From positions 3,432 through 67,431 of the forward strand of contig JACPRW010000008.1 of assembly GCA_016193585.1 (NCBI GenBank): a DNA stretch of 64,000 bases, given 5' to 3'. The notes under the pieces were generated by a model that saw only the letters and a list, made by a program, of their open reading frames with translations, was not told where the DNA came from and made no database searches. A program made the translations under genes and the position numbers. Positions 19,828 to 46,550 of the stretch are shown here, one piece after another (the stretch's first letter is position 1; every line of letters starts with the position of its first letter). The DNA comes from Candidatus Aenigmatarchaeota archaeon (GTDB lineage: Archaea > Aenigmatarchaeota > Aenigmatarchaeia > GW2011-AR5).

Positions 19828-19924
19828 TATAGTGGACCAACAAAAGAATACCGACATATTACTTTTGTTGTCCGCTATAAGTGAACCAAGATATAATACC
19901 TGATTATTTACTTGGTTCACTATA
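19828..19924. repeat. TA-bounded palindromic mini-element array (units A+B)
   Basis: TAGTGGACCAACAAAAG...CTTTTGTTGTCCGCTA plus GTGAACCAAG...CTTGGTTCAC; both recur at 22053, 34828, 46342. Confidence 0.9.
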
Positions 19925-19956
19925 AATACATGATGAACGGAGTATTGGTGGATAGC

Positions 19957-21192
19957 ATGACCGAAAAACTCGTCCTTGCGTACAGCGGCGGCCTCGATAC
20001 GTCCGTGATTCTCCATTGGCTTAAGGAAAAAGGCTACGACGTCATCGCGTTCACGGCAGACCTTGGCCAGAAGGAGGATTTTGGCGCCATCAGGGAAAAG
20101 GCAAAAGCAGCAGGTGCTTCCAAGGTTTTTGTCGAGGACGTGCGCACGGAATTCGTGACCGATTATATTTTTCCTGCCATCCGCGCCAACGCCATGTACG
20201 AGGGGCGCTACCTGCTCGGCACGTCGCTCGCGCGGCCGCTCACGGCGAAGAAGCAGATTGAGATAGCGCTGCGCGAAGGCGCAACTGCAGTGGCGCACGG
20301 CGCCACCGGCAAGGGCAACGACCAGGTGCGGTTCGAGCTTGCGTACCACATCCTTGCGCCCGGCATCAAAATTATCGCGCCGTGGAAGGACGAGCAGTTC
20401 CTAAAAACGTTCCAGGGCAGGAGCGACGCCATCGACTACGCGCAGAAGCACGGCATCCCGGTCAAGGCGAAGAAGGACGAGCCGTGGAGCACCGACCCGA
20501 ACCTCATGCATATCAGCTACGAAGCCGGCGAGCTCGAGGACCCGGCGCGGACGCCGAGGCCTCACATGTTCGAGCTGACCGTTTCGCCGCACGACGCGCC
20601 CGATACGGAGACGAAAATCGAGGTAACGTTTGAGCATGGCAACCCGGTGCGCGTCGAAAATCTGGACGACGGCACGGTGAAAACCGACCCGCTCGAGCTG
20701 TTCATTTATCTTAATGACGTTGGCGGAAAGAACGCCATCGGCAGGGAGGACATGGTCGAGAACCGCTTTGTCGGCATCAAGTCGCGCGGCGTCTACGAGA
20801 CGCCTGCCGGCACCATTCTGCACAAAGCCCACCGCGACCTCGAGGGCATTACGATGGACCGGGAAGTGATGCGCCTCCGCGATTCGCTCATCCCCGAATT
20901 CGCGAAGCTCGTCTACAACGGCATGTGGTTCTCGCCGGAGATGGATGTCATGCGCGTCATGTTCGACAAGACGCAGGAGCACGTGTCGGGAAAAGTGAAA
21001 CTGGCACTGTACAAGGGGAATGTCACCATCCACGGCCGCGAATCGCACGAGTCCTTGTACGACGCGGCCCAGTCAAGCATGGACGTCGCCGGCGGGTACA
21101 ACCCGCTCGACGCGAAGGGCTTCATCCGCGTCAACGCCATACGGCTTGTCAACCACGCGCTCAGGAAGCAGAAGAAGAGGCAAGGGCAGTAG
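19957..21192 (+). CDS. argG: argininosuccinate synthase
   Basis: [39 protein letters not shown]. Confidence 0.97.
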
Positions 21193-21246
21193 CAATCGAT
21201 AGCATGTGAAACACGGACATATAACGCTTGCATACCACTGATTATC

Positions 21247-21549
21247 GTGAAGAAAGGTAGTATTGAGGACTGGCTTTTGGTACTTCTGTTTTTCAGTATC
21301 GTTACCAGTCTTATAACAAGTTCTATGAATAATCAGGCGCAAACAAACTCCTATTATCGACAGCCTGTATACGATGATTCTAGGACATTACTAACTTGTG
21401 ATAAAGTAATTGAAGCGTGTTTGGCGGGCTGCAAAGATGCTTCCATGAAAAAGTACGGTTATGTAACTGAAGATACGTATACTGGTTGTATGCTATACTT
21501 TTGCGAAGAAGAAAGAGAGAAGTGTAAGTTTAATACGGTGGCTAAATGA
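21247..21549 (+). CDS. low-GC Cys-rich membrane-anchored hypothetical protein
   Basis: N-terminal TM helix, 6 Cys, AT-rich relative to neighbours. Confidence 0.6.
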   Translation: MKKGSIEDWLLVLLFFSIVTSLITSSMNNQAQTNSYYRQPVYDDSRTLLTCDKVIEACLAGCKDASMKKYGYVTEDTYTGCMLYFCEEEREKCKFNTVAK

Positions 21550-21562
21550 TTTCCCACACCCG

Positions 21563-21994
21563 TCACACGCCTACCGCATACAGCAGCAGCCGCGGGTAGC
21601 CGAGCAGCGGCATGGCAATCCAGACCTTGCCGAGTACCTGCTCCTTCGTGACGATAGCCCGGTCAGGAGCGGCGTTGTGGTCGCCCTTGAGCACGTAGCC
21701 CTCGTCGGTGATGCCGATGATGCGGTGCACGATGGTGATGCGCGCCTGCGGATGCTCGTAGATGACGATGTCACCGACAGCGGGGTTGTCGACGCCAGTG
21801 ACGAGCAGCAGGTCACCCCGATATAATATAGGCTCCATCGAGTTGCTCACCACGGACACGATGGGCATCGGCGTGTCCAGAGCGAATGCAAGCCCGTGGT
21901 AGAAGAGCCACGCGACGAAGAAGTAGAAGGCTACTTCGAGCGCTTCCCGTACATAGTTGTTTTTGATAGACCTGAACATAACAGTCAATTTCAT
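21563..21994 (-). CDS. signal peptidase I (Sec11 type)
   Basis: VVSNSMEP...GDLL...IVHRI...KGDHN...D. Confidence 0.92.
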   Translation of the reverse strand: MKLTVMFRSIKNNYVREALEVAFYFFVAWLFYHGLAFALDTPMPIVSVVSNSMEPILYRGDLLLVTGVDNPAVGDIVIYEHPQARITIVHRIIGITDEGYVLKGDHNAAPDRAIVTKEQVLGKVWIAMPLLGYPRLLLYAVGV

Positions 21995-22052
21995 GTATGC
22001 GGCGCATACTTTAAATGTTGTTAGTCAGGGTGCGCCACAATCGCAGCCATGA

Positions 22053-22294
22053 TATAGTGAACCAAGTAAATAATCATGTATTATAGCAGATTGTAATAAT
22101 AATGGAACTTTTAGCTGCAATCTGCTATATGGAAAGAACATCATAAAATGTTCCAAAATCAATGTTCTTTACTATTATATCTTGGTTCACTTACACGCAA
22201 AAAGCAAAGCTTTTTGGTGCACCGGAAAACTTTGTTTTCCGCGTGTAGCGGACAACAAAAGTACTATGTCGGTATTCTTTTGTTGGTCCACTAT
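22053..22294. repeat. nested mini-element array: reverse B split by C+D, then reverse H and A
   Basis: Unit B is interrupted by C+D with a TTA/TTA duplication. Confidence 0.9.
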
Positions 22295-45006: not shown

Positions 45007-45098
45007 AATTCCCAAGAAAAAACTACAGTTGCTATTTTTTCTGTCATCATTTTCTTCACAGGTGCAACTGCATTGATCCAGATTCCTGCCTTTTTGAT

Positions 45099-45355
45099 TA
45101 TATGGTGAATTGCACTGGTTATGTCCTGATATTATTTGCAATTCACCTATAGAAAATTGCGCGTTATAGTGAAGCAAATAAATAATACCGATATTATACA
45201 TTTGCTTCACATACATGGTAAAGCAAAGCTTTACCTGTACAGGTGAAACGTTGTTTCACTCCTCGTATCGTGTTTATTTCCTTGTATTGCTATAACCGCA
45301 ATCTGCTATATGGAAAGAACATTGTAAAATGTTCCAAAATCAATGTTCTTTACTA
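45099..45355. repeat. mini-element array E-(F left half)-G-L/I-(C right half)-D
   Basis: Units match copies at 25044, 42500, 22053. Confidence 0.9.
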
Positions 45356-45862
45356 TTAGATTTTTCTAGAGGGAATTAGTGAATTTTTTTTCCATACAAA
45401 CCGCAGCTCCTCTACCGGTATGAACGGGACGAAGAACCGCTCATAGAGGCGGGGGAATCTGTTGACAAAGGACGACATGATGCTGTTCCCCACGATGAGC
45501 TTCCTCCATACCATCTCATACTTCGTCCCCAGAATGTCATTGGTGGTCTTTGTATCAGTGGCATACCAGCTCCAATACGTTTTATGATTCCAATGGTATG
45601 AACCAGAGAGACGGAAGTACGGAACGATGGCATGGAGTTCCCCGCCATCTTTCAAGACACGGTGTATTTCCCCCAACAATCGTTCGATTCCATGAACATG
45701 TTCAAGGAAATGCGTCGCATAGATTCTGTCTACTGATGCCGTCCTGAACGGGAGACCATGCTCCAGATCAGCCCTCACGTCAAGGTCCTCGTTCACGATA
45801 AAGTCGATGCCAATGCACCCATCCTTTTTCTTGCTCCCGCAACCAATGTCAAGGCTTATCAT
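45356..45862 (-). CDS. class I SAM-dependent methyltransferase
   Basis: LDIGCG, LPFRTASVD, HFLEH, HRVLKDGG. Confidence 0.85.
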   Translation of the reverse strand: MISLDIGCGSKKKDGCIGIDFIVNEDLDVRADLEHGLPFRTASVDRIYATHFLEHVHGIERLLGEIHRVLKDGGELHAIVPYFRLSGSYHWNHKTYWSWYATDTKTTNDILGTKYEMVWRKLIVGNSIMSSFVNRFPRLYERFFVPFIPVEELRFVWKKNSLIPSRKI

Positions 45863-46040
45863 GCTTTGGTATCAACTCCTTCCATATGACGTACAAGGAA
45901 AATACCAAAAGGCTGAAACCTGCTGCAACATCTATGATGCGGGAAAATGGGTGCAATTCGTTCCCCTGAGCAAGCAAGTAGAAGAGAGAAATAAGAACCG
46001 CCGTAATTGCCGCAACATAATCGAACGTATTCCGTTTCAT
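45849..46040 (-). CDS. small two-TM membrane protein
   Basis: MKRNTF start with GGGG RBS; the longer ORF-track start lies inside a repeat. Confidence 0.5.
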   Translation of the reverse strand: MKRNTFDYVAAITAVLISLFYLLAQGNELHPFSRIIDVAAGFSLLVFSLYVIWKELIPKHDKP

Positions 46041-46127
46041 AAAAACCCCTTCATCCACATACTCATGCTCATAAGATATGGCTGCCACGAATCGCTGCCG
46101 TTGGTGGAGAAGATAACTATCAGCATG

Positions 46128-46256
46128 TATAGCAAACAAGGAAGTAATACAAGGTGGATTCCATGAATCCACCTGTACAGGAGAATCTTCGATTCTCCTC
46201 GTATCGTGTTTATTTCCTTGTATTGCTATAATACCTGATTATTTACTTGGTTCACT
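46128..46256. repeat. mini-element array: reverse I plus B right half
   Basis: Reverse complement of 42531-42629, followed by AATACCTGATTATTTACTTGGTTCAC. Confidence 0.88.
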
Positions 46257-46276
46257 CTAAATGAAATCGCCTTGCT

Positions 46277-46550
46277 TGCACAGCACGTTAGGCGGCTATC
46301 TTCCCTACAACTCACCTCTTTTTCATACGCAGTGAAATCCTTATATATGGTGAATTGCACTGGTTATAGTGGACCAACAAAAGAATACCAACATATTACT
46401 TTTGTTGTCCGCTACACGCGGAAAACAAAGTTTTCCGGTGCACCAAAAAGCTTTGCTTTTTGGGTGTAAGTGAACCAAGATATAATACCTGATTGTTTAC
46501 TTGGTTCACTATATCTATATCATGCACAGCACGTTAGGCGGCTATCTTCC
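46277..46550. repeat. 28-bp direct repeats (46277-46304, 46523-46550) enclosing array (E left half)-A-H-B at 46342-46513
   Basis: TGCACAGCACGTTAGGCGGCTATCTTCC occurs twice. Confidence 0.85.

Follow-up and report, generated by a model that had tools for sequence, protein, structure and literature searches.

The repeat arrays described here are very likely piles of non-autonomous IS630/Tc1-mariner-type transposons (MITEs); their host is a DPANN archaeon from the Aenigmatarchaeota group. We found repeat families, TA flanks, nested insertions, ends that match IS630 elements and a spread of the elements among related genomes. An earlier note on this DNA had read the arrays as built from non-autonomous, TA-duplicating elements derived from IS630/Tc1. 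This core of its interpretation held, as the ends match those of real IS630-family elements, and three of its points were not supported. MITEs of the IS630 type are already known; the fold-back architecture and the density found here are unusual. The window, i.e. the whole stretch of 64,000 nucleotides analysed, belongs to a MAG of 1.17 Mb that is 90.75% complete. The genome is archaeal, as had been supposed, and its relatives are recorded as Candidatus Aenigmatarchaeota.

The units described earlier are present at all nine sites that had been named. In the window, units A to J and one relative are arranged as follows.

9678..9722, strand not given: low-copy hairpin of the same build, TAG...CTA ends
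19828..19926, + strand: A-B composite without H (A ~19828-19879, B ~19876-19926), TA flanks
22053..22296, - strand: A-H-B whose B contains a nested C+D MITE (one part of B 22053-22085, C 22083-22130, D 22128-22177, remaining B 22173-22194, H 22194-22245, A 22246-22295)
25044..25142, + strand: E-F composite MITE, intact (E ~25044-25096, F ~25093-25140)
26724..26845, - strand: C-D composite MITE (core 26731-26841)
34829..35070, + strand: array A-H-B-E/F halves-G (A 34829-34879, H 34880-34931, B 34932-34979, E right half and F left half 34978-35022, G 35021-35070)
42500..42745, - strand: array F-I-piece-G-C (F right part 42500-42530, I with double-hairpin core 42528-42634, hairpin piece, G 42651-42700, C part 42698-42737)
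45099..45368, + strand: array E/F-G-J-I-C/D (E and F left half 45099-45166, G 45164-45213, J, a truncated double hairpin, 45211-45259, I end 45259-45295, C end and D 45293-45364)
46120..46262, + strand: I with double-hairpin core (46120-46234), then B right half (46224-46259)
46343..46520, + strand: left piece of E (46343-46366), A-H-B (46365-46515) and the last bases of F

The last of these is an A-H-B within an EF whose middle is lost. The 242-bp block at 34829..35070 recurs within a complete EF nest (C3:226932-227170, 97.9% identity), and the TAG...CTA hairpin at 9678, taken to be a relative, has a second copy at C3:64667-64712. About 30 nt separate the end of the composite at 19828..19926 from the start codon of argG downstream, and the outer arms of this composite match IS630 left and right inverted repeats. 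The listed CD copies differ in their flanks.

The repetition of the units was confirmed genome-wide. Counting as full copies those blastn-short matches that covered at least 85% of the unit length, out of all matches in the genome, we obtained 18-45 full copies per unit at 96.5-99.8% identity (A: 45 of 57 matches, 98.1%; B: 42 of 64, 97.5%; H: 31 of 35, 97.2%; C: 31 of 45, 96.5%; D: 42 of 52, 96.7%; E: 29 of 51, 99.6%; F: 30 of 54, 99.8%; G: 21 of 40, 99.4%; I: 18 of 59, 98.0%). In the genome, 14-mers occurring at least four times cover 38,845 bases, and 260 arrays of at least 40 bp make up 36,251 bp (3.1% of 1,170,395 bp), a total that takes in some repeats of other types. TA-bounded hairpins (40-63 nt, at least 12 of 14 terminal pairs) numbered 153, compared with four in a block-shuffled genome. 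The arrays also avoid genes: crude ORFs take up 15.9% of array bases and 82.1% of the genome.

Flanking TA dinucleotides were found left of A in 28/28 and right of B in 35/35 copies with unique flanks. In the same copies, a T occupied position -3 of unit A in 22/28 and an adenine position +3 of unit B in 22/35. We identified 21 nested events, i.e. interrupted host units, and in 17 of them the host halves overlap by 2-7 nt including TA, in agreement with the proposed nesting at TA sites. The interrupted hosts carry TA on both sides of the insert and once in the intact unit. Paralogous filled and empty examples are provided by EF in B2 (four loci) and by A(H)B within EF at the same TA (five loci). 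Three nesting details reported earlier were reproduced: B is split by C+D at 22053 (C7:25484-25624, host overlap TATAATA), the cuts in E and F fall on TAs within these units, and three window sites have H between A and B, while the one at 19828 lacks it.

About ten units had been distinguished. All of them recur, but they are not independent of one another: H has A and B on its two sides in nearly all 31 copies, and among the genome-wide copies F comes after E and D mostly after C. Unique DNA on both sides was seen for one of 45 copies of A, one of 42 of B and one of 31 of C, and for none of the copies of D (0/42), E (0/29), F (0/30) and G (0/21). The edges that face unique DNA are the left of A (27 copies) and right of B (27), the left of C (23) and right of D (30), and the left of E (20) and right of F (18). 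Single hairpins of 42-50 bp almost never stand alone (0-1 per family) and are not supported as the moving units. What moves appears to be the composites A(H)B, EF and CD. Composites of 97-150 bp sit in unique DNA, and tens of loci that differ in their flanks share one structure. Two details of the composites count against the reading as IS630-type MITEs. The A-B junction has one TA beyond what A-H-B minus H would leave, and the inner-block arms of EF face inwards (arms assigned by eye) although EF is the most uniform family (99.6-99.8%).

We compared the outer arms with the ends of IS630 elements, for which the 99th percentile of shuffled arms was 20 of 30 positions. The arm of A matched the left repeat of a metagenome IS (L071) at 27/30, that of B the right repeats of L073 and L074 at 23/30, and unit G reached 23/30. 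The top three ungapped matches of A-left were all left ends. With a second IS630 lineage (G026:C87), unit 'L' (C3:9812) scored 24/30 and unit O 20.5/30. It counts against the IS630 reading that identity between the MITE ends and those of the closest IS is 77-90% and not complete, and that the actual master copy was not seen. A loop motif, AATAC-N1-3-GAYAT, had been described as common to five units. It is exact in A and G, to which the exact matches are confined (six in the window; 0.28 expected), and the other units merely resemble it. The motif of A and G is the inner block that the IS has within its left inverted repeat, so that a single enzyme recognising structure plus loop, as had been proposed, is not needed for these two units.

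The IS itself is present in sister genomes (full copies in G004, G044 and, twice, in G061) and on twelve metagenome contigs at 62-87% identity; metagenome copies with both ends found are ~1,130 bp long with T-TA...TA-A flanks. Its transposase matches the profiles DDE_3 (E = 2.7e-34), HTH_29, HTH_32 and HTH_33, and residues D181, D260 and E297 are invariant in 4/4 aligned copies. Plasmid genes annotated 'IS630 family transposase' are 29-32% identical to it. The transposases of the two IS630 lineages share 27% identity over the aligned segment. At least two IS630 lineages have thus contributed, and with the CD family and its TTA flanks they imply more than one enzyme. In G026, MITE arrays lie inside broken IS630 genes. 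What speaks against the IS630 reading is the lack of such a gene in this assembly: a DDE_3 Pfam search of the 90.75% complete genome gave no candidates, and tblastn with the IS630 transposase ORFs of relatives gave no match at E < 1, i.e. neither gene nor remnant. Five contig ends of the assembly stop within arrays. The master transposase probably lies in an unassembled gap or has been lost, and an enzyme would act in trans within this genome.

We propose the following origin for the arrays. The founding autonomous element would be an IS of ~1.13 kb with one 346-aa transposase, in which paired helix-turn-helix motifs and a DDE_3 domain are predicted, and with unequal left and right inverted repeats of ~30 bp that start with TAG just inside the duplicated TA. 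A typical MITE would retain both repeats in full, the left one at one end and the right one opposite. Behind each repeat, its first ~18 bases would recur in inverted orientation, and each end would therefore form a hairpin of 46-50 bp (units A, B and G). The 'loop' of the A and G hairpins would be the inner part of the repeat, a protein-binding block in relatives of the transposase family. Between the end hairpins there is often a 52-bp core of two small hairpins (H). By cut-and-paste chemistry, the transposase would cut the outer ends, paste the element into TA (preferably T-TA-A) and duplicate the TA. Since the elements are rich in TA and TATA they would be good targets, and later insertions would hit the loops and feet of elements already present. 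Nests that retain two outward-facing ends would then be copied as bigger units, which would produce the combinatorial look.

The elements are not restricted to this genome. Relatives of A-H-B were detected in 15 of 40 related genomes, and the whole 97-bp CD, with identities reaching 95%, in 18 of the 69 genomes from the order; secY DNA is only 67-76% identical to that of five of the CD-carrying genomes. The hairpin - double hairpin - hairpin build also occurs in three other genera, in MAGs from other assemblies.

It is a serious possibility, although we lean somewhat against it, that CD, EF and the cores H, J and that of I come from other transposon systems. The CD enzyme would then duplicate TTA in the style of PIF/Harbinger or IS5, and each core would be a micro-element in its own right, with CAC..GTG or CAGG..CCTG feet and TA as its target. 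This possibility covers only parts of the arrays and is compatible with IS630-type MITEs. CD has TTA on both sides (left 30/32, right 27/30 copies with unique flanks), as noted earlier, whereas IS630 elements duplicate TA only, which counts against an IS630 origin for CD; a T-TA-A preference together with a terminal T could, however, give the appearance of a duplicated TTA. Among the IS630 ends compared, none significantly matched the double-hairpin cores or the arms of C, D and E. By eye, unit I is found with and without its core, which has TA on both sides, and G-I junctions with and without J, but these 'empty' forms could be palindrome deletions between TA repeats. An H-like core occurs apart from A- and B-type hairpins at eight loci of G011. 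In the present genome, by contrast, cores never lie within unique DNA, and H has repeats on both sides in 28/31 copies. No transposase with matching ends speaks for such systems: the genome's only DDE_Tnp_1 gene lies between unrelated sequences, and eight partial CD ends from relatives adjoin no transposase.

We regard it as very unlikely that the hairpins are the substrate of a structure-specific enzyme acting on single-stranded or cruciform hairpins, such as an HUH/Y1 transposase like those of IS200/IS605 or REP-RAYT systems, with the TA flanks reflecting target preference instead of duplication. Fold-back hairpins are indeed kept in every family and every genus. A-H-B folds into four hairpins (z = -12.2), the E-F composite at 25044 into two (z = -5.95), and the small hairpins of H show compensatory changes in 4/19 predicted pairs (14 sequences, five genomes). 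Genes for Y1_Tnp were found in 12 of 40 related genomes. A profile search of the genome itself, however, returned neither Y1_Tnp, the HUH candidate suggested earlier, nor a TnpB zinc-ribbon match. The outer arms match duplex inverted repeats of a DDE transposon side for side, the left arm at its left end and the right arm at its right end, and the TA on both sides of inserts in interrupted hosts also argues against this mode, as IS200/IS605 elements have no target duplication and no inverted repeats. The GTAG foot of REP elements appears to be absent from the units.

Still less probable are structured elements selected by the host (small RNAs, terminators or protein-binding palindromes) and spread by recombination without transposition. 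The strong hairpins and the compensatory changes in H would fit, as would array edges that cluster at stop codons and 20-40 nt ahead of start codons in crude gene calls. But 20-45 dispersed copies at 97-99.8% identity adjoin unrelated genes, TA flanks and nested insertions accompany ends that match a transposon, and arrays show no bias among convergent, divergent and tandem spacers (46, 46 and 102 arrays; 175, 196 and 508 spacers). In the window, no Rfam family reached gathering score.

Least credible of all is the view that the assembly made chimeric arrays out of a few real copies. In its favour, five contig ends lie in arrays, and every array is broken in k=31 contigs from four runs (assembled independently, the runs being from one study and possibly the source of the assembly). 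Most arrays >200 bp occur at one locus only, and where an array exceeds read length the order of units inside it rests on one assembly. On the other side, junctions of unique DNA with arrays were reproduced in 4/4 runs, array depth (150-800, unique DNA 10-40) is as expected for tens of copies, and the composites and their architecture recur at tens of loci and in other assemblies, as described above.

IS630-type MITEs of this kind can be compared with several known systems. With REP/REPIN-RAYT and IS200/IS605-derived elements they share short, clustered, intergenic palindromic repeats, but this genome has no HUH/Y1 enzyme, and its elements have DDE transposon inverted repeats and TA duplications. 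The plant Stowaway and Tourist elements and the 80-bp human Hsmar1-derived MITE are eukaryotic, TA-duplicating elements of the Tc1/mariner type that either have one another as preferred targets or amount to hardly more than two inverted repeats. In Sulfolobus, the archaeal MITEs SMN1 and SM3A are linked by their ends to named IS (ISC1733, ISC1058), and some strains hold a MITE without a functional cognate transposase (PMC3718332). Unlike the present elements they are longer (164 and 320 bp) with few copies, and fold-back ends or nested arrays are not among the features given in the passages that describe them (PMC3718332).

RUP of Streptococcus pneumoniae is short and non-coding, and its inverted repeats are similar to those of an IS630-family IS; its insertion site is TA, and it has ~100 copies and lands in IS elements, inactivating transposase genes (PMC2229807). 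The present elements likewise have ends that match an IS630-type IS, TA flanks and, in G026, MITEs in IS630 genes. They differ in the archaeal host with its 1.17 Mb genome, the fold-back hairpin at each end, the common conserved double-hairpin core, the nesting of several families into arrays (~3% of the genome) and the lack of a cognate transposase in this assembly.

The proposed resemblance to the Neisseria Correia repeat was upheld, as 16 of its first 18 nt equal the end of unit A (counted by eye on the repeat printed in PMC5039591). Correia/NEMIS elements have TA ends, a target duplication and a terminal repeat of ~24-26 bp. Their two size classes, ~107 and 155 bp, are set apart by 50 bp of internal sequence (PMC2229807). 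Similarly, A-B and A-H-B differ by the 52-bp H. The host here is archaeal, not bacterial, and the sequence comparison covered the terminal repeat; a plasmid search with A-H-B found nothing. To our knowledge, no cognate Correia transposase is known. A 2008 review remarks of such similarity 'not looked for or not found' (PMC2229807). TATAG-type ends are present on the distant IS630 loci L081 and L084 (L078 begins ATAGG), and part of the Correia likeness is therefore a subfamily trait. By eye, the heptamer of a Correia variant, TCAGGAC, equals the right-repeat inner block of L070, L072 and L074.

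The genome to which the window belongs, as part of contig C7 (1,170,395 bp in 10 contigs, 52% G+C, assembly 90.75% complete), encodes the archaeal markers Dph2, an archaeal-type SecY and a PGF-pre-PGF protein, in agreement with the archaeal origin assumed in the earlier note; the sequencing runs that contain the window sequence are labelled groundwater metagenome. The hairpin units that the note had described were present at all nine of its sites, and the genome-wide search that it had proposed returned 18-45 full-length copies of each of the nine named units (A to I), with mean identities of 96.5-99.8%. 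The composites that these units form are small (97-150 bp), non-coding, dispersed and near-identical. Genome-wide, 38,845 bases are covered by 14-mers occurring at least four times, and 260 arrays of adjoining or nested units of at least 40 bp sum to 36,251 bp (3.1% of the genome), a count that includes a minority of other repeat types. A search for TA-bounded hairpins in which 12 of 14 terminal positions pair found 153, compared with four in a shuffled genome. No Rfam family was found in the window at gathering thresholds.

A candidate source of the units was found in related genomes. Genes with a DDE_3 domain occurred in six of the 41 genomes searched, among which the genome of the window has none. 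The complete element of genome G004 is about 1.13 kb long and encodes a single 346-aa protein with HTH_29/32/33 and DDE_3 domains (2.7e-34). Full-length relatives are present in G044 and G061, and twelve metagenome contigs, many only 1.3-2.1 kb long, carry the insertion sequence (IS) with 62-87% protein identity. The distance between the terminal inverted repeats was about 1,130 bp in six loci anchored at both termini (L066, L070-L073), and the flanks read TTA-TAG...CTA-TAA. Residues D181, D260 and E297 of the transposase were invariant in all four aligned copies, annotated plasmid-borne IS630 family transposases were 29-32% identical to it, and its ESM Atlas match is an 'IS630 family transposase'. 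The autonomous element combines the features by which IS630 is defined: a paired N-terminal HTH and DDE_3 with D, D and E, a length of 1.1-1.2 kb, inverted repeats and TA duplication.

Both ends of the IS start with TAG after TA, with T...A outside, and are otherwise unequal: the left ends all follow one pattern, whose inner block is of the type GAATAC-G-GACATG, and the right ends all follow another, in which the inner block is of the type AATAAT-CAGGAC. We compared these ends with the arms of the hairpin units in anchored alignments over 30 nt, using shuffled arms as the null (99th percentiles 17-20). The outer (left) arm of A scored 27/30 against the left end of L071, the outer (right) arm of B 23/30 against the right ends of L073 and L074, and the outer (left) arm of G 23/30 against the IS left ends. 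All three exceed the shuffled 99th percentile of 20, which bears out the proposed IS630-type origin. The inner arms of A, B and G gave background scores; each is a short copy, inverted, of the first ~18 bases of the outer arm of the same unit. Because the outer arms match the IS ends and the inner arms are inverted copies, we conclude that A-(H)-B is a classical MITE running from left end to right end, each end bearing an acquired fold-back. The loop motif, which had been read as a shared recognition loop, is exact only in A and G (six matches in the window, 0.28 expected) and is the left repeat's inner block.

A second IS630 lineage (G026:C87) is 27% identical to the first over the best segment. 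Its ends matched the left arms of two further units, L (24/30) and O (20.5/30), and marginally the right arm of F (19.5 versus a shuffled 99th percentile of 18.5). The arms of E, C and D showed no significant match to any IS end compared, and the double-hairpin cores were also without a partner. Among the metagenome IS630 elements, L081 and L084 have inverted repeats of the TATAG type and L078 has ATAGG, with transposases only 26-36% identical to the query (best segment). Since the TATAG-type terminus is present on the distant L081 and L084, it marks a wide IS630 subgroup.

The insertion sites of A and B confirmed TA targeting. In copies with unique flanks, TA stood to the left of A in 28 of 28 cases and to the right of B in 35 of 35; T occupied position -3 of A in 22/28 and A position +3 of B in 22/35, so that the preferred target looks like T-TA-A. 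The proposed self-nesting was likewise upheld by a comparison of paralogous intact and interrupted units within this genome, which yielded 21 cases of host units split by an insert. The halves overlapped by 2-7 nt, always including TA, in 17 of them; the others were three cases in unit I with subfamily mismatches at the junction and one alternative pairing at a locus already counted. At four loci EF sits in the loop of a B-like unit; at five, A-B or A-H-B sits in EF, always at the same TA; and at C3:226910 a single EF bears both A-H-B and an insert of G plus a fragment of I. The same nests recur at several loci with different flanks, which shows that a nest whose outer ends are intact is copied as one larger unit. 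The window array at 34829 (A-H-B, the middle piece of E/F, and G) corresponds to the interior of the C3:226910 nest at 97.9% identity, a single case that fits mobilisation from the outer end of A to the outer end of G.

According to the earlier note, the moving unit is a single hairpin. In the consensus flanks, nearly all 31 copies of H had A on one side and B on the other, F came directly after E in nearly all 29 E copies, and C mostly preceded D. Solitary copies with unique DNA on both sides were almost absent (A 1/45, B 1/42, C 1/31, D 0/42, E 0/29, F 0/30, G 0/21). Left array edges were formed by A (27 copies), C (23) and E (20), and right edges by B (27), D (30) and F (18). These flank and edge counts indicate that what sits in unique DNA is A-B (about 100 bp), A-H-B (150 bp), EF (100 bp) and CD (97 bp). 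Folded as single strands, A-H-B forms four successive hairpins (z = -12.2) and EF forms two (z = -5.95).

Unlike the other composites, CD has TTA flanks, as had been noted from fewer sites: 30 of 32 copies carry TTA on their left side and 27 of 30 on their right side. When we checked CD for a PIF/Harbinger- or IS5-type origin, these flanks were present, the sole DDE_Tnp_1 gene of the genome had unrelated flanks, and no transposase with matching ends was found. A search for an autonomous CD element beside eight partial CD ends in G019, G023 and G058 revealed only ordinary genes or truncated copies. The earlier note was right in kind (archaeal, IS630-type, TA-targeting, self-nesting) and is wrong or unproven on three points: the moving unit, the meaning of the loop, and one enzyme for all units, given two matched IS630 lineages and the TTA flanks of CD.

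Of 69 other genomes in the order, 18 contain the entire 97-bp CD, with identities of 95% in G004, 94% in G044, 93% in G026, 91% in G019 and 89% in G034. The secY DNA of these five genomes is 67-76% identical over alignable parts. Since this non-coding repeat exceeds secY in conservation between genera and families, CD either would have spread horizontally or would be under very strong constraint; the contrast suggests that mobile DNA has recently moved horizontally between DPANN lineages that occur together. Sequences related to A-H-B occurred in 15 of 40 related genomes, often with A-, B- or H-like parts arranged in other ways, and the build of hairpin, double hairpin and hairpin is seen again in G026, G013 and G004, where the sequences of the hairpins are different. 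A blastn search of A-H-B against plasmids gave no match.

The search for a transposase gene bounded by the same ends was successful in part. IS630 elements with matching ends exist in relatives and metagenomes, and neither an IS630 nor an HUH gene was found in the assembly that contains the window. A DDE_3 profile search gave no match, nor did tblastn with the IS630 transposases of the relatives (E < 1), Y1_Tnp (0 matches, two candidates scored) or the TnpB zinc-ribbon domain; these searches cover a 90.75%-complete assembly in which five contig ends stop in arrays. Metagenome copies of the IS mostly lie on contigs of 1.3-2.1 kb, so an IS present once and surrounded by arrays would be expected to end up on a short contig of the sort that binning tends to drop. 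The cognate enzyme may have been missed in this way. Equally possibly, it would have been lost, leaving orphan MITEs as in some Sulfolobus strains, which carry them without a functional cognate transposase according to the available text of PMC3718332. The 99.6-99.8% identity among EF copies argues for recent activity.

Two other kinds of transposase in this genome were rejected as partners. The first is the DDE_Tnp_1 gene (C5:81400-82700, L009), whose flanks and ends are, by eye, unlike any unit. It is single-copy, encodes 410 aa with an N-terminal cysteine-rich (SWIM-like) region, and lies in a low-G+C island adjoining a large surface protein gene. The second is an rve-type (IS481-like) IS with termini TGT..., unlike the hairpin units; the same 136-bp end of this IS occurs at six contig ends (C2, C4, C5, C6, C7 and C9, that of C7 being outside the window). 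A second, related IS lies at the ends of C3 and C5, and both are collapsed multi-copy elements unrelated to the hairpin units.

Several composites contain an additional core. H consists of two tandem 26-nt hairpins with CAC...GTG feet. Across 14 sequences from five genomes, four of its 19 predicted pairs were kept via changes on both sides, and the stem of the second hairpin differs in each genus. J and the core of unit I each comprise, by eye, two 24-nt hairpins with CAGG...CCTG-type feet and TA between them. Unit I also occurs without its core and G-I junctions also occur without J; in both cases, by eye, the short form has a single TA and the long form has two. A-B, by contrast, has one TA in excess of what removing H from A-H-B would give. 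In this genome the cores were never found in unique DNA, and H had repeats on both sides in 28 of 31 copies. In G011, an H-like double hairpin is part of a different repeat of about 115 nt at eight loci (L036-L043), where its neighbours are a different 24-nt hairpin, a conserved tail and, at some of the loci, one more hairpin; A- or B-type hairpins were absent from all eight. The cores may be micro-elements or passengers, or they may be structures that selection maintains for their folding.

A second, G+C-richer modular repeat with nested hairpins often adjoins the TA-type arrays. Its outer modules are always there and three inner modules are variably present, so that the repeat measures about 115 nt in its short form and about 243 nt in its long form; blastn found 49 pieces genome-wide, the best copy being G000:C3:14474-14716. 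In the window it occupies:
10010-10190, G+C-richer modular repeat with nested hairpins
19222-19336, G+C-richer modular repeat with nested hairpins
22294-22346, G+C-richer modular repeat with nested hairpins

In mechanism and family, the system described here is an IS630/Tc1-mariner MITE system, like RUP with IS630-Spn1. RUP pairs with this IS, and it lands in and interrupts IS transposase genes (PMC2229807, available text). Similarly, MITE arrays break two IS630 transposase genes in G026, L017 (G026:C72) at 1680-1829 and L034 (G026:C90) at 130-290, one of which belongs to the lineage with ends matching A and B. REP/REPIN-RAYT systems differ in that this genome has no Y1_Tnp match. The IS200/IS605 family also differs, as the units have inverted repeats and TA duplication and the genome lacks Y1_Tnp and TnpB matches. 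What is new here is a variant of the known IS630 MITE kind with universal fold-back ends and conserved double-hairpin cores.

The likeness to the Correia elements of Neisseria extends over several features. TA ends are common to both, and the end of unit A agrees with the 26-bp Correia terminal repeat as printed (PMC5039591) at 16 of its first 18 positions, a by-eye count for the terminal repeat only that agrees with the resemblance noted earlier. The Correia variant heptamer TCAGGAC equals the inner block of the IS right end. Correia elements have short and long forms (107 and 155 bp) that are a ~50-bp internal piece apart (PMC2229807, available text), which resembles the pair of A-B and A-H-B. 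Part of this likeness is a subfamily trait, since TATAG-type ends are present on the distant IS630 loci L081 and L084.

Textbook cut-and-paste does not account for the universal fold-back ends and the conserved double-hairpin cores. These two features keep a more novel reading alive, improbable as we consider it: the fold-back hairpins would themselves be the working substrate. With a TATAG foot and the inner block in the loop, each hairpin would act as a transposon end in either orientation, as a cruciform or single-stranded, which would imply a structure-dependent way of working for a DDE IS630/Tc1-mariner transposase or for some other partner. If true, this would explain how ends pair in elements far shorter than the stiffness length of DNA, and why EF is the youngest and most uniform family despite its inward-facing block-carrying arms. 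It would also explain the fold-backs in every family and genus, the compensatory pairing of the 24-26-nt hairpins, and the CAGG..CCTG-footed micro-hairpins at TA sites. Fold-back ends and double-hairpin cores are approachable experimentally with one small transposase.

A more modest reading than that of hairpins as substrate would make this IS630 lineage a relative of the enzyme responsible for moving the Correia elements of Neisseria. To our knowledge, that transposase has never been identified, which is an old question in Neisseria genomics. The Correia-like ends and the short and long forms provide a concrete candidate enzyme family.

A 2024 MITE census (preprint) reports in its available text that DPANN are the densest archaeal MITE carriers, with a maximum of 145.5 per Mb, and a 2026 survey of archaeal ISs mentions MITEs just in passing in the text available. 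We found no literature linking Aenigmarchaeota with 'miniature inverted-repeat'; the supplements of the census may list this or related genomes. With roughly 160-260 arrays in 1.17 Mb, compared with that published maximum of about 145 MITEs per Mb (also DPANN), a very small symbiont-type archaeal genome has among the densest non-autonomous transposon loads so far, and this load can be linked to one particular IS630 lineage, for which both the left and the right end are resolved.

By crude gene calls, 15.9% of array bases lie within ORFs, compared with 82.1% of the genome, and arrays showed no preference among tandem, divergent and convergent spacers. Array edges clustered in two places: 49 of 250 fell between -20 and +10 nt relative to a stop codon, and 36 of 251 lay 20-40 nt ahead of a start codon. 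Both counts again depend on crude calls of genes and starts. This clustering fits a TA/TTAA target, which is common in stop codons and archaeal TATA boxes, and is no evidence of function. Element ends of the form ...CTATAAA resemble an archaeal TATA box at promoter distance, for example at window 19922-19957, from an array end to the start of argG. The promoter and stop-codon distances to genes and the five broken contig ends make the arrays matter for gene regulation and MAG quality.

In k=31 contigs from four runs, which belong to one study that is possibly the source of the assembly, every junction between unique DNA and array was reproduced and breaks fell within arrays; most of the listed joints are other genomic copies. 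Depth was 150-800 in arrays and 10-40 in unique DNA. The 97-150 bp composites are secure, since they occur in many copies and are also present in other assemblies; for arrays exceeding 200 bp, the inner order depends on a single assembly. In three of the four runs, window position 34983 was joined straight to 35071 at single-copy depth, skipping 87 nt (the middle piece of E/F, and G), and in the fourth a contig merely begins at 35071. The break of this joint is not at TA, and the joint may be a population variant of the array. Across 12 kb of the window (50000-62000) the AT skew is strongly negative (-0.24 to -0.36), and short T-rich direct repeats lie within this stretch at 59146-59312.
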